Part shown: in pieces, positions 15,190-63,737 of the stretch
Layout of the letters: every line of letters starts with the position of its first letter
Numbering within the stretch: position 1 is the first letter of the stretch
Source of the DNA: Candidatus Bathyarchaeota archaeon
GTDB lineage: Archaea > Thermoproteota > Bathyarchaeia > Bathyarchaeales > Bathycorpusculaceae
Length of the DNA: 64,000 nucleotides
Reading direction: 5' to 3'
NCBI GenBank assembly: GCA_963768425.1
Contig: CAVYHV010000014.1
Span: 128,001 to 192,000, forward strand
The notes under the pieces: generated by a model
What the model saw: only the letters and a program-made list of their open reading frames with translations
Told to the model about the DNA's origin: nothing
The model's database searches: none
Position numbers and translations under genes: made by a program

Positions 15190-15318
15190 GCAGGCAAGCA
15201 TATGCTTTTCTAGACTTGCATTAAGATTTCGTTTTTGTCATCCCCCTTTGTTTCCCATAGAAACTCTTGTTGTAGGCATCACACAGTAACAACTTCTAAA
15301 AAGCACCCCTGAACCCCA

Positions 15319-15915
15319 TTGAGTGAGGTAAAACCTTTGAAAATTGCAATAATCGGAAAAGGCAATGTCGGCACAGCACTCAGCAAAGGCTTAAGTGGCA
15401 AGCACGAAGTGAAGTTTGGTCACCGAGACCCTGCGGAACCTGTCGCTGACGCAGCAAAATGGGGAGAAGTAATCATTTTGGCAGTACCCTACGACAACGC
15501 AGAAGACGCGATTAAAGAAGTCAAGCCTTACGCGGACGGAAAGGTTGTCATCGATGTCATGAACGCTATAGGATCGAAGATGGAGCTGAACATAAGCTGC
15601 ACGACCTCTACCGCAGAGGAAACCCAAAAGAAGCTGCCTAAGGCGCGGGTTGTCAAAGCGTTCAATACCGTTTTCGCGAGTAACCAAAACACGGGTAAAA
15701 TTGGCATGGAACAGTTGACGGCTTTTATCGCAGGCGACGATTCGAAGGCTAAACAAACGGTTGATCAACTAACGCGGGACATAGGGTTCGACCCAGTCGA
15801 CGTCGGACCTCTTAAGTCTGCGCGGTATCTTGATGCCATGGCCATAATGGTAATTAATTTGGCCTACAGCTATGGCATGGGACCAAAAATAGGCTACAAG
15901 CTGGTCAAAGCTTAA
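15319..15915 (+). CDS. NADPH-dependent F420 reductase-family oxidoreductase
   Basis: IGKGNVG Rossmann motif, ILAVP, VVKAFNT, IAGDD, DVGPL. Confidence 0.9.
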   Translation: MSEVKPLKIAIIGKGNVGTALSKGLSGKHEVKFGHRDPAEPVADAAKWGEVIILAVPYDNAEDAIKEVKPYADGKVVIDVMNAIGSKMELNISCTTSTAEETQKKLPKARVVKAFNTVFASNQNTGKIGMEQLTAFIAGDDSKAKQTVDQLTRDIGFDPVDVGPLKSARYLDAMAIMVINLAYSYGMGPKIGYKLVKA

Positions 15916-52719: not shown

Positions 52720-52818
52720 TTAACTGCAGCTTGATTCCTCAACCAACAAATTAACACTACGAATTGAGTTCAACCACAAGTTATTCGGATTGCCTTTAAA
52801 ACTAAAAACTGTCCCCAT
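52720..52818 (-). CDS. Possible 32-aa leaderless ORF
   Basis: ATG 23 bp downstream of a TATA that carries the 24-bp element. Confidence 0.3.
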   Translation of the reverse strand: MGTVFSFKGNPNNLWLNSIRSVNLLVEESSCS

Positions 52819-52852
52819 ACGATCTAATGTTTAAAAAATCTATTTAAACGTC

Positions 52853-52876
52853 TGTGACTGTTAAGTACCATCCACA
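52853..52876 (-). promoter_or_regulatory. 24-bp element, copy 1
   Basis: TGTGAC TGTTAA GTACCA TCCACA next to TATTTAAA. Confidence 0.7.
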
Positions 52877-53047
52877 ATAAGGGTTAGCTCTTATTTTGTT
52901 TCTTTCTTTGCTACAATTTGTTTCTTATACGATTCGCGCAAACAAGAATAACAAGACATTAAGTCTGACCCTCCTTCACCTGAATTACCAAAAAATAGAT
53001 AATGAAAAAATTGAAGTAGGATCAAATTCATTTATAGGCATCGTATA

Positions 53048-53363
53048 TTACGTTTTCTTAATCATCACTGCAATAAGTCCAATTAGTCCTCCGAGAACAA
53101 CAAGCATTCCGCCAAGTCCACCGCCAATGATTCCAACGATTATGAGTACGATTGCCCAAACGATGATGTGTTACGCTTTTTGAGCCAATGATCGCGATGA
53201 TACCACAAATGATAGAAACAATTCCGAAGTAAGCGAAGCCAAACGATATAAATGATCCAAAGTAACTGAAATCATAACCAATGAGCGAAAGCAATCCGAA
53301 AATTACCAGCAGTATTCCGCCAATGAACGCTAAGTAGTAGGCTATTCGAGAAATTTCTGACAT
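53048..53363 (-). CDS. Gly-rich 4-TM small membrane protein (frameshift ~53168)
   Basis: GGAGGTGA RBS; hydrophobic helices continue in the other frame (IVWAIVLIIVGIIGGGLGG..). Confidence 0.7.
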
Positions 53364-53590
53364 ATTCAAATTCACCTCCCTCAATCACTAAGTAAGGGCT
53401 TAAGATTCAGTTTAGGGCAGGCATATCCTGAATTTTAGACGCAAAGCACTTTTCACTTGCTTTGGCTTGAGACGAATTTTGCATAGTCTGACGCCTTATT
53501 GATCATTTTTCCGAAGGAGATATTTTAGGAGCAGAATCTGTGTTGCTTGCAGAATCTTTGTTTGTTGTTTGGTTAACGTTTTTTTTGGCG

Positions 53591-53749
53591 TTATATTCTT
53601 CGTCCTGAAACTAATCGGACAAGTATTATGAGGATGGCGATGACAAGAAGCAACCAAATGATGGCACCAAGATTGAAGAAGACAAAACCAAGAAGCCACA
53701 GAATGATAAGGATTGCAGCAACTACGAAAAGTAAATCAAGTAAGCCCAT
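53591..53749 (-). CDS. lmo0937/DUF5670-like membrane microprotein (52 aa), not in ORF track
   Basis: MGLLDLLFVVAAILIILWLLGFVFFNLGAIIWLLLVIAILIILVRLVSGRRI. Confidence 0.85.
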   Translation of the reverse strand: MGLLDLLFVVAAILIILWLLGFVFFNLGAIIWLLLVIAILIILVRLVSGRRI

Positions 53750-53799
53750 TTTTCAAAAACCTCACTTACAATTAACTCGGCAGAGCCTATTTTAAGATG

Positions 53800-53823
53800 T
53801 GTGACTGTGGATAACCAGCCACA
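53800..53823 (-). promoter_or_regulatory. 24-bp element, copy 2
   Basis: TGTGAC TGTGGA TAACCA GCCACA next to TATTTTAAG. Confidence 0.8.
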
Positions 53824-54238
53824 GCTTTAGCGTGTTATTTACTCTTTTGGAATCACAAATGTGAGTTTTTGAATTGTTTCCGGGTTCAATTTATTTCAAA
53901 CGTCAAGATAGTATTTTGTTTGTTTAATTGGCTATAGTTAGATTTTTTGAGAATTTCTTTAATGAAAAGAGAGAAGCAAAAGTCACTATGAAAAACATTC
54001 AACAACTAAGACAATCAAACGCACGAGTTGTTAAATTTAAATATTAAAAAGGTATACCTGAAATTTAGTCATCCGACGAGAATGATTGAAGAATTTTAAG
54101 CTCAAATGAGTTGGACTTGAATTGCGAGAATGCGGTATTTGTAGTTAATTGATCTGCAATAATTGAAAACATGTTAAAAGTGGAGTTAATGCGCCGGCTA
54201 GGAACCGTGTCTGTAACTGACGAATTCTGAGGCTGATC

Positions 54239-54944
54239 TCATAAAGGATTGCGAGCTGATTCTAGGAAAATTCTTTTAAGAATGGTCGCGCCATCGCTTA
54301 CCTTCAATTTTTTCTCTCCAAGTCTCATTCTATACTTAATAGGTACTTCAACAATTCCAAAGCTTCTTCGTTCTACTTCACTATTTAGTTCCACTTCTAT
54401 ATCAAAACCTTTTGACTTTACATGCCAATCTCTTAGGATTTCAGCGCGAATTGCCCGCAGTCCTGTCAGCGGATCTTGCATGTTTACCCCATTGAGTAAG
54501 CTATGAGAGAAAGCTAAAAGCTTGTTTCCCAAATAGAACAAGTTACGCAATGCACTTCTCTTCGGCGTAGCCATTAAACCTGTTTCCGCAAACCATGCCG
54601 ACCTCTGGGTGGTTATCGAGAATCTGGATCATTTTAGGGATATACTCCGCAGGATAAGTGAAGTCCGCATCTGTAACAACAACATAGTCTACATCGGAAT
54701 CTATGTACCTCATAGCTTTCAAGATGGCGTCGCCTTTTCCTAAGCCATCCTGAAATAGAATGTGTGCACCCAAATCTTTGGCAATTTCAACTGTCCGATC
54801 ATTGCTGTGCCCATCAACCACTAAAATCTGGTTAGGATTAATGTTTTGCGAAATCTCCTTTAACGTAAGACCTATACCTTCCTCTTCATTCAACGCTGCA
54901 ATTACGACGTCAGCGGAACATCTACTATCAAACTCTTTACTCAA
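54239..54944 (-). CDS. GT2 glycosyltransferase, DPM synthase-like (frameshift ~54560)
   Basis: AALNEE, VVDGHSND, TDADFTYP, DPLTG, FDIEVE, RLGEKKL. Confidence 0.88.
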
Positions 54945-55134
54945 TTAGTTCTTCATCTTAAGCTATTTTTCAAGTTAACTGACATGTTTAACCAATTTTT
55001 CTTTTTCAAAAGTGGACTAAAATTACAAAAAAGAGAGTTCGAATGAATAAATTAAGTCTCAACGCTCATTTACCCTTCTTTATGGCTCGTGATTTGAGCT
55101 ACTTTATATATAGTCATTGGCAGAGTTAAACTCG

Positions 55135-55158
55135 TGTGACTGTGAGCTCACACCGACA
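55135..55158 (-). promoter_or_regulatory. 24-bp element, copy 3
   Basis: TGTGAC TGTGAG CTCACA CCGACA next to GTTAAA. Confidence 0.8.
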
Positions 55159-55242
55159 TTCTGACTTTTATGTTGAGCTAAATAGTCCAAGTGCTGTGAT
55201 GAAACTGAAACTCGAAACTAAAGAAGAAATGATTGCTTCAGA

Positions 55243-56030
55243 TTAGTCTTCAGCTTTTTTCCAGTCGGATTCAAAACCTGTTCTGAGTACGCCTATAAGG
55301 TTGCTGTTGTTTGTCCAAAGAGAAGGACTTTCGCCTAATCCCGTTTCTTTAGAGGTAGTAATCAATGCTTCTTTATCATCAGACATTATGAAGTGATTCA
55401 AAGGTTCACGATGAAACTTGACATGAACCGAAGTGCCATCGATAAGTTTTTTCACTTTTTCTTTGAGCAAAACGTCAGGGCTTTCTCCTTCAAAAATTAG
55501 TCAAATCTGAGCTGCCTTTCTTTATTGCTTGCTTACATTCATCTGAAAACTGAGACAAAATCGGTATAATTCTTGCCTTGTCTGCAATCAACGCGACTTC
55601 TTTTCTCGAGTTTCTAATCAGTTCTGAAGTCTTTGCTAAAATTGCTTTCTTTTCCGCTATCAGTATGTAGATGCTTTCTTCTCCAGGAACCGGCTGTTTC
55701 CAATCCTTAAGGGACAGCCTCTGGACACTACTCCTCATACCCGTCAACCGATCATCAGATTTGTCTTTTTTCTTCCGCCACCAGAAAGCTTAAGGCATCC
55801 GAAATAGGAGTAGCCCGGACCTCAGCTGGTTTACCCATTAATCTTTCAATCAGGCCCATTTTTTCAAGTGACGGCAAAATTCTATAGACGTCTTCTCTGC
55901 GCACTTTTGAAAACTTCGCTACTTGTCCTACCGTAGTTTTTTCCAGCTTAAGTATTGCTAAGTAAACCCTTGCCTGATTAAGACTCAAACCCAAACCAAG
56001 CAAAAGATCCGTGTTTTCATCGTTTGACAT
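55243..56030 (-). CDS. TrmB-family regulator (three fragments from frameshifts)
   Basis: LGLSLNQARVYLA..SKVRREDVYRILPSLEKMGLIE wHTH; C-terminal FIMSDDKEALI..LWTN..FESDW. Confidence 0.85.
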
Positions 56031-56069
56031 TCTCTATTCATGCAATATAAAGATAGCTATCTAATATAT

Positions 56070-56552
56070 TTATTCAATTGGTATATCACTCTGCTTGATT
56101 AGGTAGATATCAGATCCAACTAGTCTCATACTAATAGTTTCTTTTTTAAATTTAGTATACTCTGGAAGTGTAGCCATCTTAACTCCCTTAATGATGATCT
56201 CCTTTCCTTCTTTGGTCTTCTTTACTTCTTTCTTAGATAGATCATAGCCATGTGTACGTGCAAATTCCTTTAAATATCGATCAAGTATTGGATAGACCTT
56301 TCTTACCAGTGCTTTCCTCTCTTTCAGATTTAGATTACTAAAGTTCTCTAATTGGAACACTTTCTCAAGGTTTAATCTATAGGCATTCCTTGACATCTTA
56401 CCTACTAGCTTTATAGCAGCAGCTAGATTAGAGTATTTAGGTTCTTTTCCTTTCCTTATAGTCTTTATTGATTCCACAGGTACGATATCAGCGAATAACT
56501 CTTCCTTAAGTTTACTTAGCTGTATCTTTATCTGTAGTGTTATCTGTAGCAT
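56070..56552 (-). CDS. Basic hypothetical protein
   Basis: 160-aa Lys-rich ORF in an AT-rich segment. Confidence 0.5.
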   Translation of the reverse strand: MLQITLQIKIQLSKLKEELFADIVPVESIKTIRKGKEPKYSNLAAAIKLVGKMSRNAYRLNLEKVFQLENFSNLNLKERKALVRKVYPILDRYLKEFARTHGYDLSKKEVKKTKEGKEIIIKGVKMATLPEYTKFKKETISMRLVGSDIYLIKQSDIPIE

Positions 56553-57227
56553 TAATTAAAGAATCAGACTCTAGTCTTTTTTTCTTTTCTCTTCTTTATT
56601 TTTGACATTTCAAAGCCATAGGATACTATTCTCTATACTGTGGTACTTAAGCATATGGATATGGTCTACATTGCTTAGACAACAAATAGAGTATAGAAAA
56701 AGACTCAGGATATTTTACTAAACTGTCGGATCTGTTGTTAAACTACATATCGCGCGCAGCATGTCAGAGGAATTGATCCCTTTCTGCTTTGTTCGCGTGT
56801 CAATATTATGTTCGATGGGAGGAGCACTTTTTCCAGTTCTTTGAGACCTTTGAGTACTAAAACACCTCGGGGAGTAATCTCGTAGACAATTCTTCCTTCC
56901 TTTACAGACTCTCTCCAATTAAACCCTGTTTGAATAGAACCTCGACAAATTCACTGAATGTTTTGGAGTTGACGAACCTTTTGCATGCATTTATATCTAA
57001 AATTTTTAGCAATTTTCAGAAAATTGCAAGGCTATATCCGTTTTTCGAATATTTGATTTGTCTTGATTTTGAAGGTTTCTCTTGTTAAAGAAGGAGAAAA
57101 ATTTGCTTAGTAATCTGAAGGAGGTTCAACTAAAATCCGATGGAAAAATTTTGAGACGTGTGTTATAGCAATTTCAGAATTACTTAATCGATTGCTCTAT
57201 TCGATTTAAATAAAAGGGATATTCGGC

Positions 57228-57569
57228 TTACGAGAGTACGAAGCCGATGATTATGCCTATTACGAATCCAATGCTTAGTGGTAGTATGCCTATGATGAGT
57301 GCACCGTATTGATACACAATTGACCCGTATTGAGTTGCATAATTTTTCAACGAACTAAGACTTAAACCGAAAAAGCCGAAGTAGGCAACTACGAAGAGTA
57401 TAATTGCAGCTATAATGGCAATCTTTAGGAATAAATGGATTAGATACCCCACAATCAATCCGACGACAAATATTATTATCATTAAGACAATGGGTGGCAA
57501 ACCACCTATGCTTCCAGAAGTAATAAAATGAAATACTTGATCTATCGCGCCCAAAATCCACAACTCCAT
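57228..57569 (-). CDS. Small multi-TM protein, FUN14-like pattern
   Basis: GLIVGYLIHLFLKIAI..LPLSIGFVIGIIIG. Confidence 0.75.
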   Translation of the reverse strand: MELWILGAIDQVFHFITSGSIGGLPPIVLMIIIFVVGLIVGYLIHLFLKIAIIAAIILFVVAYFGFFGLSLSSLKNYATQYGSIVYQYGALIIGILPLSIGFVIGIIIGFVLS

Positions 57570-57608
57570 CAATTAAGTTAATAGAGTTTAAAATAGCTAT
57601 TAAACTTG

Positions 57609-57633
57609 TGTGAGCTGTAGCCCCACATCAACA
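57609..57633 (-). promoter_or_regulatory. 24-bp element, copy 4 (1-bp insertion)
   Basis: TGTGAGC TGTAGC CCCACA TCAACA next to ATTAAA. Confidence 0.7.
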
Positions 57634-57723
57634 AAGCGTTATGCTGCTTGAAAAGTCAAGGTATGATTCAGAGCCCAAAAACTGTGAGATTATTCTATAA
57701 GCAAAACCTGGTTGATGCTCAAA

Positions 57724-57747
57724 TGTTGCTGTGGCTTCACAGTCACA
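57724..57747 (+). promoter_or_regulatory. 24-bp element, copy 5
   Basis: TGTTGC TGTGGC TTCACA GTCACA, 5 bp, then TTAATT. Confidence 0.8.
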
Positions 57748-57794
57748 CACACTTAATTCTGCAATAAACGACCTTTAGATGGAAGGTGATAGGA

Positions 57795-57932
57795 ATGCCT
57801 GAAGAGAAGAAAAAAGTTGAAAATGCTGCTGAAAAAACTGGAGAAGCAGTCGGCAAAGGCATCAAGAAAGGTGCTAAAGCAGTCGAGGACTTCGGGAAAG
57901 GAATAAAGAAAGAACTCAAGAAAAAAGAATAA
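57795..57932 (+). CDS. LEA/hydrophilin-like microprotein (45 aa), not in ORF track
   Basis: GGTGA RBS; MPEEKKKVENAAEKTGEAVGKGIKKGAKAVEDFGKGIKKELKKKE. Confidence 0.85.
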   Translation: MPEEKKKVENAAEKTGEAVGKGIKKGAKAVEDFGKGIKKELKKKE

Positions 57933-58253
57933 AGACAAAATCTCCTGTGGAAAACCCGAAGAAGCGGCGAATCTTGTAGACTGGACGAGAAACTGGCGAA
58001 AACAATTCTGAGAATACAGTTTAGCGCATAACCTGTTCTTCAGAAAATATTTAGTAGCTGCCACTCGCAGTTTCCTGTTCTTCTTTTCTATACTAGCTCT
58101 TCTTCTTCCTTAAATCGTTTCGGTCGGGGGTCTATCTCTACAGTTTAGACTCAGGCAGCTCATTCTCGATCTCTTTTTTCCAATTCTTCAAGATTTTTGC
58201 AGCGAATGCATACGTAACGCTTCTGGTTTACTTGAGATACTGTTTACCTGACA

Positions 58254-58602
58254 TCAGAGCGTTTCTACTTCAACCTCTTTATCATTCAGCATTCTCATGA
58301 ATCGTCCTCCTTCGTGAACTATCTCTCCTACAATTGCCTTATTGGTCTCCAAGAATAAGTGCCATGCATTTATGCAGGTCTCTATTACCAAGTAAACTTT
58401 CTGATACGATTGAGAAATAACATGCAATCGTATTTCTGCTACTCGATTGTTCAACTCTTCCTGTTTCGTGAAATCCATGGATTTCCCTATAACCTCCGTC
58501 ATTTCAATCAGACTTTTTTTTTATAATTTGCCTGTCCCTATTTGAAATTCCGATTTTTGTACACCAAAGTAGTTGGTAACCTTCAAGGGAAAATTTGCTC
58601 AA
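58254..58602 (-). CDS. Hypothetical protein (A-run frameshift ~58518)
   Basis: GGTGA RBS and TTG; removing one A from the 9-A run joins it to the 82-aa ORF. Confidence 0.5.
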
Positions 58603-58996
58603 CAAACATCACCTATACAATACATGTAACTGGCAATTATTAATTAGCTTATTCTTTATTTTCGTTTCACTCTAAATAGTTGTAGTTGGTGCTTTAACCA
58701 CAAGATTACCTGATTTTCAGCTCGGTGTCGCTTTTTGTTGTTGGCAACAGCAGAATAAACATTGGACTGAGCAGAAGCCCTAACCGGAAACGAATAACCG
58801 TTTCGTTACAATTTATAGAAAACCATTGAGAATACCCTTCAGGGCTTGTAACTTCTTGAAAAAATCGCAAGTTTTTCTTCTGAATAAAAGCATAAGCATC
58901 AGAATCTCCAATAGTCCCCTGCTCGGCCGCAAAAAACAGAAAACAAAAAGCTGCTAAACTACAACAGTTTAATTGAATGTCTGGGAGAAAGGCCAC

Positions 58997-59782
58997 TTGG
59001 CGATTATTGCTGTTTCAGACTTGCACCTAGGATTCGATGCCTCTGACAAGGCTGCGTTTACCCGCTTCCTCGGAAACCTTCAATCCGACCCCAGCGTTAC
59101 AGACCTCGTCCTTCTCGGCGACATCGTGGACATGTGGAGACGAGATTCATCAGGCATTTTCCTCGAGAACCATGATGTTCTCGACCTTATCAACGAACTA
59201 CAAGAAGAAGATGCGCATATATTACGTTGCAGGAAACAATGATTTCCACGTCCGCAAGCTACAAGGCCTAGGATACCCAATCAACTTCATTAATGGACCT
59301 GAAGCTTCAGCAAGACGGCCTGAATCGCAGGTTTGTTCACGGCTGGGAGTTTGACGAGATGCAGAGGAAGCACTTCATGGAATCGCTGTGCCACTCAATG
59401 TCTGATCAGAAGGGCGAACGCGACACTAACATTTGGGCTGCTCTTGGCCGTTACGAAAATGACCTGTCTCGTTTTTTCTCCATGATTGATCGGGGAAGAA
59501 AACGCCAAATCGCTGAGATGTTCCGGCTAGGTCCAGAGCAGAGGCTCATAGAAAACCTGAAAGGTGTAGAAAGAAAGGCCCGTTCCACAGTTCAGCCCAG
59601 GGAAGTTCTTGTCTTCGGGCACACCCACAGACCCTTCGTGAACAAGGCCGAGAACCTCGCAAATACCGGCTCATGGGTTACAGACTGCGCCTATCCACAA
59701 TACATATGTGCGGATAGAAGGTGGCAAACCCAGGCTATTCGTGTTCAAAGGAGCCGAGATAACGGAAAGAGCCGACATCTAA
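58997..59782 (+). CDS. Calcineurin-like metallophosphoesterase (LpxH-like), several frameshifts
   Basis: SDLHLG, GDIVD, GNND, VHG, FGHTH, NTGSW spread over different frames. Confidence 0.85.
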
Positions 59783-59854
59783 CTATCACTTCCATTTTTC
59801 TGCGGCTAAGAGTATGCGCGCTGCCCTGTTCTGATATTATGTATTGAAGTAGGC

Positions 59855-60240
59855 AGGTCTCTTCTATGATCTTGTTTAGGTTGTCTTCTCCAACTTTTCG
59901 GATGAACCTGCTAAGAACACTTCTTGTGTAGCCTTTCTCATCTTTCTTGATTAAACACAGTTTTCTAAGCCTTGGATCGGTGTCGAGTAGGCATGTCATT
60001 TCGCTTAGACTGCGAACACCCTTCATGCACATGACAATGAAGGTTCTGAAAAGTCCCAGGGGATTTCTGGAGGGACTGCCTGGCCCAGAAGAGTGAAAGC
60101 AATCTTTCAAAACGTTTTGTGCAAAAATTAGGTCGATATTTTCAAAGAGAATTTCAAGAATTTTATGTTCATCTTGTCCCGCCAGAATGCAGCGCCTAAG
60201 CTTGGACTCAAACTCGTAAAATACGATAGTCCAATTACTC
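59855..60240 (-). mobile_element. Truncated IS transposase N-terminus (DUF772-like; IS5/IS1182/IS4-type)
   Basis: GPGSPSRNPLGLFR..GVRSLSEM..LRKLC..YTRSVLSRF; no DDE domain. Confidence 0.65.
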
Positions 60241-60269
60241 TTATTAATTTAAGGACAAGCCAGCGCGCT

Positions 60270-60293
60270 TGTAGTTGTAGTTCTACAGTCACA
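60270..60293 (+). promoter_or_regulatory. 24-bp element, copy 6
   Basis: TGTAGT TGTAGT TCTACA GTCACA, 5 bp, then TTAAGTA. Confidence 0.8.
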
Positions 60294-60351
60294 AACCGTT
60301 AAGTAGAATTGAAAAGACATTGGGTCAGTCATACGAGAGGTGATTGGATAA

Positions 60352-60471
60352 ATGAGGTTTTTGCATAATAACAAAGGTGGTTTAGGTAGTTGGCTCTGGT
60401 CCGCTATTGTAGTAGTAGTATTAATAATAGTTCTTATCGTTGTTTTGAGATTTCTTTTTCATTTGATATAA
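60352..60471 (+). CDS. 39-aa single-TM microprotein, not in ORF track
   Basis: GAGGTGA RBS; MRFLHNNKGGLGSWLWSAIVVVVLIIVLIVVLRFLFHLI. Confidence 0.75.
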   Translation: MRFLHNNKGGLGSWLWSAIVVVVLIIVLIVVLRFLFHLI

Positions 60472-60530
60472 AGGGAAGCTAAGATAAAGATTACAACCTA
60501 ATCTTTAGCTTACCCTATCTGTTTGTTTTT
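60472..60530 (+). terminator. Hairpin followed by T-rich tract
   Basis: AGGGAAGCT..AAAGATTA/TAATCTTT AGCTT ACCCT, then T runs. Confidence 0.5.
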
Positions 60531-60789
60531 TATGTTGTTGTGTCGTTTTGTGTGTGTGGATTAAATTTTAATCTTTCTCTCTCTGAAACTTACGAATTAC
60601 TAAACTTAACGACGACCTTACTCTCACTGTACTAACCCTTAAGCAAACCCACAACTACACGAAGCGACACCCAAAAGACGGAAAAGACAGTGAGACCTCC
60701 GCTTAGCAGTTGTGCAGTAGTTCTTCGATCTCTTGAAAAACTATTTCAACTGACTATCGGAAGCCTTGAACAGCTGGTTTTACGCTTTG

Positions 60790-60954
60790 TTAGAGTTTTC
60801 TTTTGGCTTTGCCTAAGTCTTCTTCGATTTTCCCTTTTACTTTCTCAGCTTCGCCCTTAATTATTTGACCTGTGTTGCCAGTAATTTTGGCCCCGCCTTC
60901 GCGGATTTTGCCTTGGTCCTTTTTGAGTTTACCTTTAACTTCTTCTTCGCTCAT
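60790..60954 (-). CDS. csbD: CsbD family (UPF0337) stress protein (54 aa), not in ORF track
   Basis: MSEEEVKGKLKKDQGKIREGGAKITGNTGQIIKGEAEKVKGKIEEDLGKAKRKL; GGTGA RBS. Confidence 0.88.
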   Translation of the reverse strand: MSEEEVKGKLKKDQGKIREGGAKITGNTGQIIKGEAEKVKGKIEEDLGKAKRKL

Positions 60955-61000
60955 AAAATTTCACCAAAAGAATAGAGTCTCTGCGATTTTATTAAGCGTA

Positions 61001-61024
61001 TGTGTATGGTGCTTAACACTCACA
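61001..61024 (-). promoter_or_regulatory. 24-bp element, copy 7 (degenerate)
   Basis: TGTGTA TGGTGC TTAACA CTCACA next to ATTAAG. Confidence 0.7.
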
Positions 61025-61791
61025 ATGATGAACATAGCCTTCGCAATGTACGCTGATCAACGATTGCTTTTGGGCCTTCCAAAAACTTACATCATAGAAG
61101 GGAAGAAGCCTATTCACGATTAAGCTAATCATCAGAACATATAAACAATAAATAATTTCTGGGTTGACTTGTTCTTTGTCACAACCCGCGGAAGGCCTTT
61201 GCCCTTGCAGTGTACGCTGAGTTAACTACCATCACAATACAAGCGCGCCTATCAGCATAATAAGGCCTGCAGTTAAGGATGAACATAAAGTTAAAGTAAT
61301 AGCATAATAACAATCACCTAAGCTTTCATCAGCAAGATATGCAAATCATCTTATTATTCCGAGAAGTGTTCCGAGACCAAGATACATTATCATGTCCCAA
61401 TTTGTAAAATTGTAAGCACAGAAAGAAACGCCAAGTGCCATTGTGTTAGCGAATGTTATTAGTCTGCGCGCGTGCTCACAATAAATTAACGTTACATACA
61501 ATTACAGAAGTGCGTGCCGGCCTGTTGCAGAATTCCAAAGAAAGAGAGATTTTGATAAATTTAGGTTTATTCTTGATATTCATCTGGATTCTTTTGACAG
61601 GAAGATATTTGATATTCTCAAAGAGAAAGATCAGCTTCTCACCCTACCCGAGTTAGGAGAGGACTCAGAGTTTGCCTTTCAACTGTCATGATCCATCTGG
61701 AGTGGCTTGGTCTAACCATATCTACAGAATATTCTATGATTTGTTTCATAAGTATGAGCGCATTCTCAATTCGTCAGGGAGAAGTCTGCAG

Positions 61792-62569
61792 TTAAGATTT
61801 CGTTGAGTTGGCGATGCGATTTTGAACCGTTTCGGATAGCTTTTTCCTCAAGTTTTCATCGTCGTGGGTCCATACATTGATCTGGTCAATTCTCTTAAGC
61901 TAGTTCTTCATCACCAATAACGTTTATGAACCATCTTTGAAAGTCTTGACGCTGAAAATGAAACGTGACAGACTGAATGGGTACTATTTGGAGTTTTTCG
62001 GCGAACTCAATTGTGTTACTTGCAGTTATTCCAGTATTTTTTCCGAGCGCAATGTAAAATTGAAAGCTTTTTTCAAAGGGAACGGTGTTGATTAGGTTTA
62101 GCGGTAGGAATGGAGTATTCAACTTTTTCCCCAGCTCTATCGCCCATTCCTTCACTCTACCCATGTTCAGATCGTCCATGATGGTTCTATTTTGGCTAAT
62201 CATGCAGCCTCCAAAACCAGCAACGTCAATAAGCTTGAGAGACTTATTTTTAGCCAGTAATTTTTTTTGGTTGGCTTCAGTATTTAGCGCTTTCGCGTCT
62301 TCCTTATTCTCGCATAAGAAATAGAGCGCGACATTTTTGCCTTCAAAGTCCTTCTCCATAAAATCCACAGCTTCGTTGTAAACGCTGTTTCCAGCCCCAC
62401 CGCCAACAATAATGTTTTGGAATGATGCAATGTCCGCTGGACCCTTGCTAAGATCCGCGAGAGTTGCATCCATGTTGTAGGTTGTTTTGAGGGTGTCAGC
62501 TATGGTATGTGCTACTTGTTCATTTAATCCACTTATTGTCGAAAAAACTATTAGGGTTTTTCCCGTCAT
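61792..62569 (-). CDS. Flavodoxin-like domain fused to DUF5752-like domain (frameshift ~61895)
   Basis: TLIVFSTISG..VAHTIA flavodoxin start; SFQFY..EFAEKL..SVTFHFQRQDFQRW..GDEELA(KRI). Confidence 0.8.
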
Positions 62570-62622
62570 TGTTCTTCACTTTCCTTATATCACATTTAAC
62601 ACGCACGCTTAATTTTAAGATG

Positions 62623-62646
62623 TGTGACTGGGAATAAACAGCTACA
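62623..62646 (-). promoter_or_regulatory. 24-bp element, copy 8
   Basis: TGTGAC TGGGAA TAAACA GCTACA next to TTTTAAG. Confidence 0.8.
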
Positions 62647-62846
62647 CCTGCACTGGCGATTGCGTTAAGTAAGCTTTTTTTATGTTTAGCTTCTGCCCAT
62701 CTTGCGAGTAAGGTTATTGACACCTTCTTGTTTATCATACATGAGCTTCAAACTTTTGTCTTAAATAGCGAAATTAAGTGAATAAGCTAAAATATGCCAT
62801 TAAAATATGTTTGAATATTCTTGCACTATGACTATTTATTCAATTT

Positions 62847-63173
62847 TTAAGATTTCAATTGCTTTCTTATGATGATGAAAAGCGCCAAAAGGAGCAGTGC
62901 GCCAATGACGCCTGAGGTGATACCTGTGATGTACCAAGCTTCCCACGGAGGCATGAAAGTCATAAGGTACTTCAGTGACCCGATGAGGATAAATAGGGAA
63001 GCAGACCCTATGAATGAAATTACCAGGGAAACCAAGATGCTAATAATTACACTTGTTATGAGAATTTTTTTGAGGCGTTTCTTAAGTTCACCCTGTTGTT
63101 CATGTACATATTCTCTTATAACGGCTTTTATCTCATTGAAGAAAGACTCGATAATTTCCTTTATTGTGGGCAA
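62847..63173 (-). CDS. YqjE/phage-holin-family-like 2-TM protein
   Basis: Amphipathic N-helix, TM, LMTFMPPWEAWYITG, TM. Confidence 0.7.
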   Translation of the reverse strand: MPTIKEIIESFFNEIKAVIREYVHEQQGELKKRLKKILITSVIISILVSLVISFIGSASLFILIGSLKYLMTFMPPWEAWYITGITSGVIGALLLLALFIIIRKQLKS

Positions 63174-63231
63174 TTAATTCTTCCTTCTTCGTCCAAAGAG
63201 AGCAGATTGTCAGCCAATTCTATCAAAATCT

Positions 63232-63459
63232 TCATTGATTGTGGACGTTTATTGTTCCTTGTGGCTTTGCTGACTTGAATAAATAATATCCGTACAGGAA
63301 CAGGAAGAGTGCTATTACTAAACTGCCTAGTCCTAATGGGAGAACAAGGCTTGTTGCAATGAATTTAAAAACTCTTAAGAGTACTGCAAGTCCAAAAAAT
63401 ACTATCAGAACTGCTAATATACAGATTCCTACACCGCCAATCCAACTTCCAAATCCCAT
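63232..63459 (-). CDS. Small 2-TM protein
   Basis: 75 aa, two hydrophobic helices, GGTGG RBS. Confidence 0.75.
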   Translation of the reverse strand: MGFGSWIGGVGICILAVLIVFFGLAVLLRVFKFIATSLVLPLGLGSLVIALFLFLYGYYLFKSAKPQGTINVHNQ

Positions 63460-63513
63460 ATTTTTCCACCTTTACCCCATTTATTTCTTCTCTTGATTGT
63501 CCAATGTTATTTT

Positions 63514-63666
63514 TTACGTCCTGAAAGCTAGTCGTGCAACTATTATGCTTATGGCTGTGACAGGCAGAACCCATATTATGGTGCCTAGGTTAAAAAAAAC
63601 AAAACCAAGGAGCCAAAAGTTAACAAGTATCCCAGCGACTAAGAAAAGTGAATTAAGTAATCCCAT
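63514..63666 (-). CDS. Second lmo0937/DUF5670-like microprotein (50 aa)
   Basis: MGLLNSLFLVAGILVNFWLLGFVFFNLGTIIWVLPVTAISIIVARLAFRT; paralog of 53591-53749. Confidence 0.75.
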   Translation of the reverse strand: MGLLNSLFLVAGILVNFWLLGFVFFNLGTIIWVLPVTAISIIVARLAFRT

Positions 63667-63713
63667 TCCAACGTCTCACTTACCATTAACTTGGTAGAGC
63701 CTATTTTAAGATG

Positions 63714-63737
63714 TGTGACTGTGAACAAACAGCTACA
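63714..63737 (-). promoter_or_regulatory. 24-bp element, copy 9
   Basis: TGTGAC TGTGAA CAAACA GCTACA next to TATTTTAAG. Confidence 0.8.

Follow-up and report, generated by a model that had tools for sequence, protein, structure and literature searches.

Ptr2 of Methanocaldococcus jannaschii and TFB-RF1 (PF1088) of Pyrococcus furiosus bind palindromes that lie directly upstream of the transcription factor B (TFB) recognition element (BRE) and the TATA box, at a rigid distance, and both are presumed to act by recruiting the TATA-binding protein (TBP) and TFB. For these two factors, as for TrmBL1/Tgr and SurR, a site upstream of BRE/TATA goes with activation and a site downstream with repression. 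The Bathyarchaeia, a group of archaea abundant in sediments, peat and soil, are uncultured. A palindrome in the same position as those of Ptr2 and TFB-RF1 recurs in a 64-kb stretch of a Candidatus Bathyarchaeota genome (hereafter the window; G000:C14:128001-192000, from a 2.96-Mb assembly in 33 contigs, G000). Unlike the sites of those two factors, it is 24 bp long with four TGT/ACA triplets and serves a far larger regulon, and no Lrp-type gene (as for Ptr2) or PF1088-type gene is linked to it here. About 40 promoters in the genome carry the site; a low-GC "stress island", between 52.8 and 63.7 kb of the window, contains a cluster of nine. With a probability of roughly 0.8, the element is the predicted docking site for a sequence-specific regulator, through which a general-stress-like regulon would be controlled in this archaeon and in its relatives.

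Within the window, the loose form of the pattern (TGTN3TGTN6ACAN3ACA, at most one mismatch) occurs eight times, at 52853, 53800, 55135, 57724, 60270, 61001, 62623, and 63714, whereas 100 dinucleotide shuffles of the same 64 kb gave a mean of 0.12 matches and a maximum of two. Genome-wide there are 38 such matches. A matrix seeded on the window sites and then iterated over the genome retrieved 72 non-redundant sites at a score of at least 14 and 42 at a score of at least 20, and the oriented consensus of these sites, TGTKGY-TGT-N6-ACA-RTCACA, is an imperfect inverted repeat. Thirty-eight of the 42 stronger sites are situated outside open reading frames (ORFs) of at least 120 aa, which make up 74% of the genome (26% outside; binomial p ~1e-18). 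The flanks of the 42 sites were left out of matrix training; the one on the RTCACA side shows a TATA-like box (TTTAWA) at positions +29 to +35, while the opposite flank is without signal. TTWA starts 3-6 nt past the motif at 27 of the 42 sites, compared with 4 of 42 on the opposite side and 3.9% of random positions. Apart from this box the flanks hold near-zero information, and the sites are therefore not copies of a mobile element. The motif is thus over-represented, non-coding, and fixed, in position as in orientation, with respect to the core promoter, as is usual for the site of a transcription factor, and its end, 4-5 bp before the TATA box, places it upstream of and adjacent to BRE/TATA in the manner of Ptr2 and TFB-RF1. 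Because of this short distance the motif would cover roughly -58 to -35, abutting or overlapping the BRE position, assuming that transcription starts ~25 nt past the TATA box.

A distance of 21 bp separates the outer triplets, and one of 9 bp the inner triplets. Read as TGT-N12-ACA taken twice with an offset of 6 bp, the geometry fits nested palindromes as well as offset dimers of the Fur/DtxR kind, so that a dimer or a tetramer would bind the palindrome in either of these arrangements. A factor seated there, just upstream of the TATA box, would probably help TBP/TFB loading; activation is favored because the site stands upstream of the TATA box with a single rigid spacing and a single orientation. 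Two near-identical matrix matches (score 21.9), at G000:C4:11420 and C28:45153, are found 170-190 nt ahead of proteins of 92 aa that have no Pfam family, and have no TATA box at the usual distance.

The motif is also retained among relatives. Of the 61 genomes of the genus, 53 have its strict form (TGTN3TGTN6ACARTCACA); the counts run from 0 to 15 per genome, against a single match in total for the reversed pattern used as a control. Across the class it is found in 23 of 301 genomes: nine of the 14 genus genomes in this set, three of the six from the sister genus g21, and a few in two other families of the order, among them G268 (six matches in one 8-kb stretch) and G303 (three matches). G163, which belongs to a family outside this order, has 38 strict matches, while the other nine genomes of its family have none. 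In the phylum outside the class, one of 341 genomes has one strict match, equal to the control and therefore at chance level. The relatives, G163 included, keep the same spacing between motif and TATA-like box. At the MsrA promoters of the genus, a site with a score of at least 16 is kept in 17 of 29 loci, in the same place before TTAAG, and the 12 loci without a site are mostly more distant orthologs. Conservation at orthologous promoters despite drift around the site is likewise seen at the loci of two versions, A and B, of a winged-helix gene (HTH_45 family) and of a small protein termed P77, both considered below.

In G163, the sites precede genes for CsbD, Hsp20, DJ-1/PfpI, glyoxalases, DUF1428, a bacterial PH domain protein, and PRC-barrel proteins, for a receiver protein that adjoins a PAS histidine kinase, and for homologs of P77 and of a protein consisting of a RAM domain only. 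From these sites and gene types it follows that two distant lineages have both the site and the stress theme in common. This genome and G163 share a 110-aa protein (G000:C12:25617-25946 versus L238:347-676; 83% identity), which lies within ~1.5 kb of a motif site in both and hints that a gene passed recently from one motif-bearing lineage to the other. In G268, from another family, the six strict matches in 8 kb (C5:22962-30604; L328) form a second kind of "stress island", where a P77-like gene is situated directly behind the apparent end of a superoxide dismutase gene.

The genes behind the sites were assigned by a Pfam run on the first credible ORF past each site (55 proteins). Stress-type targets are three DUF5670 membrane peptides, CsbD, a KGG "stress-induced" repeat protein, the methionine sulfoxide reductase MsrA, a Cpn60_TCP1 thermosome paralog, a multicopper oxidase of 769 aa, and a DEAD-box helicase. 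The thermosome gene, like the TATA-type promoters, marks the organism as an archaeon. An alpha/beta hydrolase and LarA are also among the targets, together with a flavodoxin-like protein, an F420-type oxidoreductase, the RAM-domain-only (AsnC_trans_reg) protein, and a glycosyltransferase. A histidine kinase (behind a weak site), a C2H2 zinc-finger peptide, and an HTH_45 winged-helix protein complete the annotated set, and many further targets are small proteins without a Pfam family. Three paralogous motif promoters (G000:C1:46577, C14:287922, and C3:25611) are followed by a conserved leader of ~93 nt and then by a cysteine-containing peptide of 41 aa (MVEDK...CKGC...) that belongs to no known family. 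Weaker sites (scores 18-20) at G000:C30:84806, C9:16268, and C14:44929 stand ahead of small proteins with a common Cys-x-Cys...AMN.AI..H segment, with which a histidine kinase also begins at its N-terminus. In four metatranscriptome runs, drawn from two studies, 5-8% of the sampled words of the stretch occur, and the contigs of these runs cover the flavodoxin-like gene (the deepest), the 114-aa membrane protein gene of the island, CsbD, and others.

The sites of the window, with one regulator gene of the island, are as follows (box, TATA-like box; score, matrix score).
Copy 1, 52853-52876, minus strand: score 25.2, box TTTAAA at 52843-52848; ~300 nt downstream without a credible gene, only a doubtful 32-aa ORF at 52720-52818.
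Copy 2, 53800-53823, minus strand: score 28.0, box TTAAAATA at 53788-53795; target predicted from position, the DUF5670 membrane peptide gene 53591-53749; probably also drives the 108-aa membrane protein gene 53058-53384.
Copy 3, 55135-55158, minus strand: score 22.2, box TTTAAC at 55125-55130; a family-2 glycosyltransferase gene starts 190 nt downstream and is split into 54543-54944 and 54239-54574.
Copy 4, 57609-57633, minus strand: 25 bp, score 24.5 once one base is removed; target, the 114-aa membrane protein gene 57228-57572; divergent from copy 5.
Copy 5, 57724-57747, plus strand: score 32.3, the best of the window, box TTAATTCT at 57753-57760; target, a lysine-rich protein of 45-48 aa, 57786-57932.
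Copy 6, 60270-60293, plus strand: score 26.1, box TTAAGTAG at 60299-60306; target, a 39-aa membrane peptide, 60352-60471.
Copy 7, 61001-61024, minus strand: degenerate, score 8.7, box TTAATAAA at 60988-60995; target, a CsbD-like gene, 60790-60954.
Copy 8, 62623-62646, minus strand: score 26.2, box TTAAAATT at 62611-62618; target, a flavodoxin-like protein of 224 aa, 61895-62569.
Copy 9, 63714-63737, minus strand: score 27.9, box TTAAAATA at 63702-63709; target, a second DUF5670 gene, 63514-63666, then the same-strand membrane protein genes 63232-63459 and 62847-63173.
Extra, weaker site, 15268-15291, plus strand: score 21.6; ahead of an F420-dependent NADP oxidoreductase-like gene, 15319-15915.
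TrmB-family regulator gene, 55243-56030, minus strand: inside the island, in three frames here and intact in G003.

A preliminary description of this DNA had reported nine copies. Eight fit the loose pattern, with copy 7 degenerate; the ninth, copy 4, has an extra base in its gene-proximal half and fits the matrix only without that base. In agreement with that description, all nine lie between ORFs, the conserved RTCACA end faces the gene in 9/9, a TTAA/TTTAA core begins 4-5 bp past this end in 9/9, copies 4 and 5 form a divergent pair on opposite strands at 57.6-57.7 kb, and copies 2 and 9 are paralogous promoters, those of the two DUF5670 genes. A nearby start codon had been claimed for eight of nine; seven have one, 36-58 nt past the motif, the start at copy 3 being 190 nt away and copy 1 having only its doubtful ORF. 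The first 52 kb had been described as free of full copies, which holds for the loose pattern and not for the matrix, given the weaker site at 15268-15291. The nine copies are clustered in a lower-GC stretch (36-43% GC from 46 kb on, compared with 41-50% earlier), and an Rfam scan of the window found no family.

The islands of G001, G003, G012, and G013 have the motif again before the genes for DUF5670, the flavodoxin-like protein (two paralogs), CsbD, the 114-aa membrane protein, and two peptides, the 39-aa one and the lysine-rich one; the exceptions, where no site scores at least 17, are a DUF5670 locus of G001 and a CsbD locus of G012. By copy, the motif is kept at the orthologous promoters of G013 and G012 for copy 2, before the G003 ortholog for copy 5, before the G013 and G001 orthologs for copy 6, and before both G013 paralogs for copy 8. 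The orthologous site of copy 3 in G003 scores 17.0, the G003 ortholog of copy 4 is a regular 24-mer ahead of the same gene, and the CsbD promoter of G001 that corresponds to the degenerate copy 7 is a good site (score 22.4). A DUF772 transposase fragment is located inside the island at 59745-60110, adjoining copy 6.

In several genes the coding sequence is spread across two or three frames: the glycosyltransferase (54239-54944), the TrmB-like gene (55243-56030), a metallophosphoesterase-like gene (58973-59847), and the HTH_45 gene (G000:C1:47083-47235). Metatranscriptome contigs of relatives are one base shorter at 59200/59202, 59294, and 59684, and the TrmB-like gene is intact in G003. The frame breaks are probably single-base assembly errors. 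Many such breaks occur in the assembly, and the extra base of copy 4 may be an error of the same kind.

The best candidate for the regulator, at somewhat less than even odds, is P77, because its own promoter carries the best site of its contig and its distribution follows that of the motif. P77 is a basic protein of ~90 aa including a basic N-terminal leader, encoded at G000:C10:48030-48299; it has no known family. The site in its promoter is the best-scoring one of contig C10 (score 32). The motif followed by TAGC and TTTAAG or TTTAAAC is present in 30/30 P77 loci, and further orthologs from the genus and sister genus have the same own-promoter motif in 9/9, which gives 39/39 in total. Among the 61 genus genomes, 48 encode P77, most of them once, with G024 added by a profile search. 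It is present in all 30 genus genomes that have at least six strict matches and is absent from seven of the eight that have none, the exception being G041, which has P77 together with a variant of the site. In the sister genus, P77 occurs in exactly the three of six genomes with the motif, and G163 has five copies.

Six genes were tested in the same way against motif counts, and P77 alone is present in all 30 motif-rich genus genomes. In these 30 genomes the Sso10a-type gene, version A or B, reaches 24/30 and the RAM-only protein 26/30 at family level, with fewer as orthologs. MsrA is absent from 3 of 21 motif-rich genomes in a smaller draw of 41 genomes, and orthologs of the TrmB-like gene (at least 72% identity) occur in ~21 of 61 genus genomes.

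More distant homologs of P77 have repeats of their own. Upstream of the weak N-terminal homologs in other families, the motif described here was found in 0 of 12. In family f24 (L321-L330), the own promoter contains two tandem boxes ending in TGTTACA, past the TATA box; these boxes are found essentially only in the own promoter, and TGTTACA resembles the distal half-site. In genus g16 of family f7 (L320, L323, L329, and L339), the own promoter carries a 16-bp palindrome, ATGAATATATATTCAT, in 4/4 genomes, and each genome has 1-3 further ATGAATATATATTCAT sites. Such own-promoter repeats would be the pattern expected of self-controlled DNA-binding proteins, which is not proof. The predicted structure of P77 consists of a beta-beta-alpha-beta core and a long helix (predicted local distance difference test score, pLDDT, 75.8). 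A protein-atlas search returned no usable match, and homodimer prediction (score 0.30, mark 0.42) is not evidence either way.

If P77 does bind the site, it would found a new family of small archaeal DNA-binding regulators and would be the master activator of a general stress response of ~40 promoters in a few lineages of Bathyarchaeia, a more tentative proposal to which we give about one chance in three. In this scheme P77 would act from the 24-bp site next to the BRE on the TBP/TFB machinery, and the patchy spread (including G163, with 38 sites and five P77 copies) would stem from a transfer of the regulator and the later recruitment of promoters.

Several observations weigh against this reading, most of them against P77 as the regulator. 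No match was found in Pfam, NCBIfam, or PDB sequences, the P77 gene stands alone, and no DNA-binding fold is recognizable in the model. Foldseek comparison of the model with the PDB gave no match at E 0.001 or better, and the wide VIA-align search reached a best Z of 4.6, with generic split beta-alpha-beta domains that include ribosomal and ACT-like ones. The basic C-terminal helix differs between the lineages that share the motif. P77 is absent, though 1-5 strict matches remain, from G009, G017, G050, G057, and G074 within the genus, where three of the five assemblies are 56-68% complete, and, beyond the genus, from G303. In G017, G050, G074, and G303, 2-4 sites remain and no P77 is detectable. 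The genomes free of both motif and P77 are small and are also without MsrA, the TrmB-like gene, and most HTH_45 genes; because so many accessory genes were lost together, P77 may be just the most faithful target of the regulon. Since relatives are not independent, the co-occurrence counts overstate the support. The metatranscriptome contigs are mostly 90-95% alike, that is, from relatives, and starts, strands, and induction are not readable from them. Finally, activation is fairly probable from the position of the site, which is the one thing that speaks to the direction of control.

A competing explanation, also at somewhat less than even odds, is that the regulator is neither P77 nor the Sso10a-type protein and is encoded elsewhere, for example a winged-helix or TrmB-type paralog, possibly fed by a kinase and receiver pair; P77 would then be only a target, such as a dormancy or RNA-binding stress protein. 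That P77 shows no known DNA-binding fold and only generic split beta-alpha-beta domains as weak structural neighbors fits this explanation, as does the simultaneous loss of many accessory genes from the motif-free genomes. A kinase and a receiver-only protein stand beside sites in both G000 and G163, and a scan of 115 ORFs next to the G163 sites revealed none with a DNA-binding domain, so that no adjoining gene there serves as a regulator candidate. A factor encoded elsewhere does not, however, account for P77 being the only one of the six genes found in all 30 motif-rich genomes, the only one that fits both the three-versus-three split of the sister genus and the outlier G163, and a gene whose own promoter has the motif in 39/39. 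The TrmB-family gene of the island was rejected as the regulator, as its orthologs, limited to the number of genomes given above, are missing from several motif-rich genomes.

The factor that binds the element, whichever protein it is, could also be a repressor that sits at the upstream edge of BRE/TATA and blocks TFB/TBP until a signal releases it, which is the main, though less probable, alternative to activation. The last bases of the motif reach the BRE position of the tRNA promoters of this genome, in which A-rich bases precede boxes of the TTTAAA or TTATAT type. Regulon promoters have the invariant CACA and 4-5 variable bases where the tRNA promoters are A-rich; in a comparison aimed at a weak BRE that would depend on an activator, AA occurs in the last 5 nt before the TATA box in 54% of 26 tRNA promoters compared with 29% of 28 regulon promoters, a weak contrast that speaks for neither direction of control. 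The own-promoter repeats of the distant P77 homologs are downstream of the TATA box, the usual position for a repressor, and autoregulated small repressors are common. Occlusion, however, needs neither a strict single spacing nor one orientation of an almost symmetric site, and in the archaeal cases named at the outset the sites upstream of BRE/TATA activate.

The Sso10a-type winged-helix protein as a self-controlling regulator is a still less probable alternative, at about one chance in eight. The gene exists in two versions, A at G000:C1:47083-47235 and B represented by G019. In this genome it lies directly behind the site at G000:C1:47304, and HTH_45 (PF14947) is a bona fide DNA-binding family, to which even the broken G000 copy is assigned (E 3.6e-07). 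Version B matches PDB entries 1r7j (E 5.3e-08) and 4hw0 (E 1.1e-04) by sequence and version A matches 1r7j (E 0.011), so that this motif-preceded gene is of the same family as Sso10a of Saccharolobus. Its promoters carry the motif in 28/30 loci for version B and 13/17 for version A, and the two versions (A in 15 and B in 32 of 61 genomes) replace each other almost perfectly, with both only in G068. Against a regulatory role, 18 of the 61 genus genomes have neither version, among them G016, G020, G054, and G056 with 8-14 strict matches; in G016 the site of the B-type promoter is kept while the gene is gone; the Sso10a-type homologs found in G163, with its 38 matches, have no upstream motif; and the G000 copy is broken by two frame shifts, though it is intact elsewhere. 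According to one account (PMC4941522), Sso10a proteins are treated as architectural, though they are believed to be sequence-specific factors. In the genomes compared here, the gene is more likely a faithful member of the regulon, and hence a target, than its indispensable regulator.

The Sso10a/HTH_45 family is large in G000 (26 matches at E 0.01 or better) and nearly absent from the small motif-free genus genomes (0-2 matches in G006, G018, G052, and G198). Family size was discarded as a phyletic marker, being not discriminating, as the family is present in 271 of 301 class genomes. The other HTH_45 paralogs of G000, G016, G020, G054, and G056 have no consistent upstream motif, and one paralog type is divergent from a site in G000 and G016.

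That the element is no regulator site at all, and is instead an alternative TFB/TBP core-promoter class, a mobile-element end, or a site of recombination, as the fixed TATA distance and the transposase fragment beside copy 6 might suggest, is highly improbable, for a 24-bp inverted repeat with a free 6-bp center and variable TATA-proximal bases is unlike the 6-7-bp BRE, the 42 flanks share only the TATA box, and the sites persist at orthologous single-copy promoters while spacer and flanks drift.

The element as the docking site of a regulator thus agrees with the central proposal of the preliminary description, a shared cis-regulatory site of a co-regulated gene set, which is borne out by spacing, orientation, conservation at orthologous promoters (the MsrA, Sso10a-type, and P77 loci), and the genome-wide matrix, with its intergenic enrichment (38/42) and fixed TATA spacing (27/42 versus 4/42). 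The flanks likewise bear out that the sites are not mobile-element ends, and the alternative-TFB promoter class that had also been considered there is not upheld. Its scope was too narrow: the window is one cluster of a ~40-promoter regulon, and the motif is present in 53 of 61 genus genomes. Full-text literature searches found no promoter motif or regulon of Bathyarchaeia and no archaeal CsbD/KGG regulon, and the earlier statement that no described archaeal motif resembles the element stands with them. Judged from the genomes compared, the element is a real, conserved cis-regulatory site of what appears to be a previously undescribed stress regulon. The outcome is a defined 24-bp site, ~40 target promoters that mirror bacterial general-stress content, and a short list of candidate regulators; the motif may also mark sets of stress genes when metagenomes or metatranscriptomes of these lineages are read. 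Should P77 bind the site, a DNA-binding family without a recognized fold would be added.

Other described sites have features in common with the element. The TGM motif of Thermococcales (bound by TrmBL1/Tgr) and the SurR site follow the same position rule, the half-site contains ATCAC, and the island has a TrmB-family gene. In those sites, however, the half-sites are oppositely oriented and the spacing is different, and orthologs of the island TrmB gene occur in only ~21 of 61 genomes. The outer letters TGTGA...TCACA and the inner letters CTGT...ACAG recall the E. coli CRP site (TGTGA-N6-TCACA) and the LexA box (CTGT-N8-ACAG), but the spacings here are N14 and N6 and the host is archaeal, and no membership is claimed. 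In gene content, the regulon is strikingly similar to the general stress regulons of bacteria (sigma-B of Bacillus and Listeria, RpoS, and EcfG), with which it has in common CsbD, the KGG/GsiB-type repeat, peptides of the lmo0937/DUF5670 type, MsrA, and small hydrophilic proteins. Unlike those regulons, it is marked by a palindrome beside an archaeal TATA box and not by a sigma-factor promoter; to our knowledge, archaea have no sigma factors. If P77 is indeed the activator, its regulon would be the archaeal counterpart of the sigma-B and RpoS regulons.

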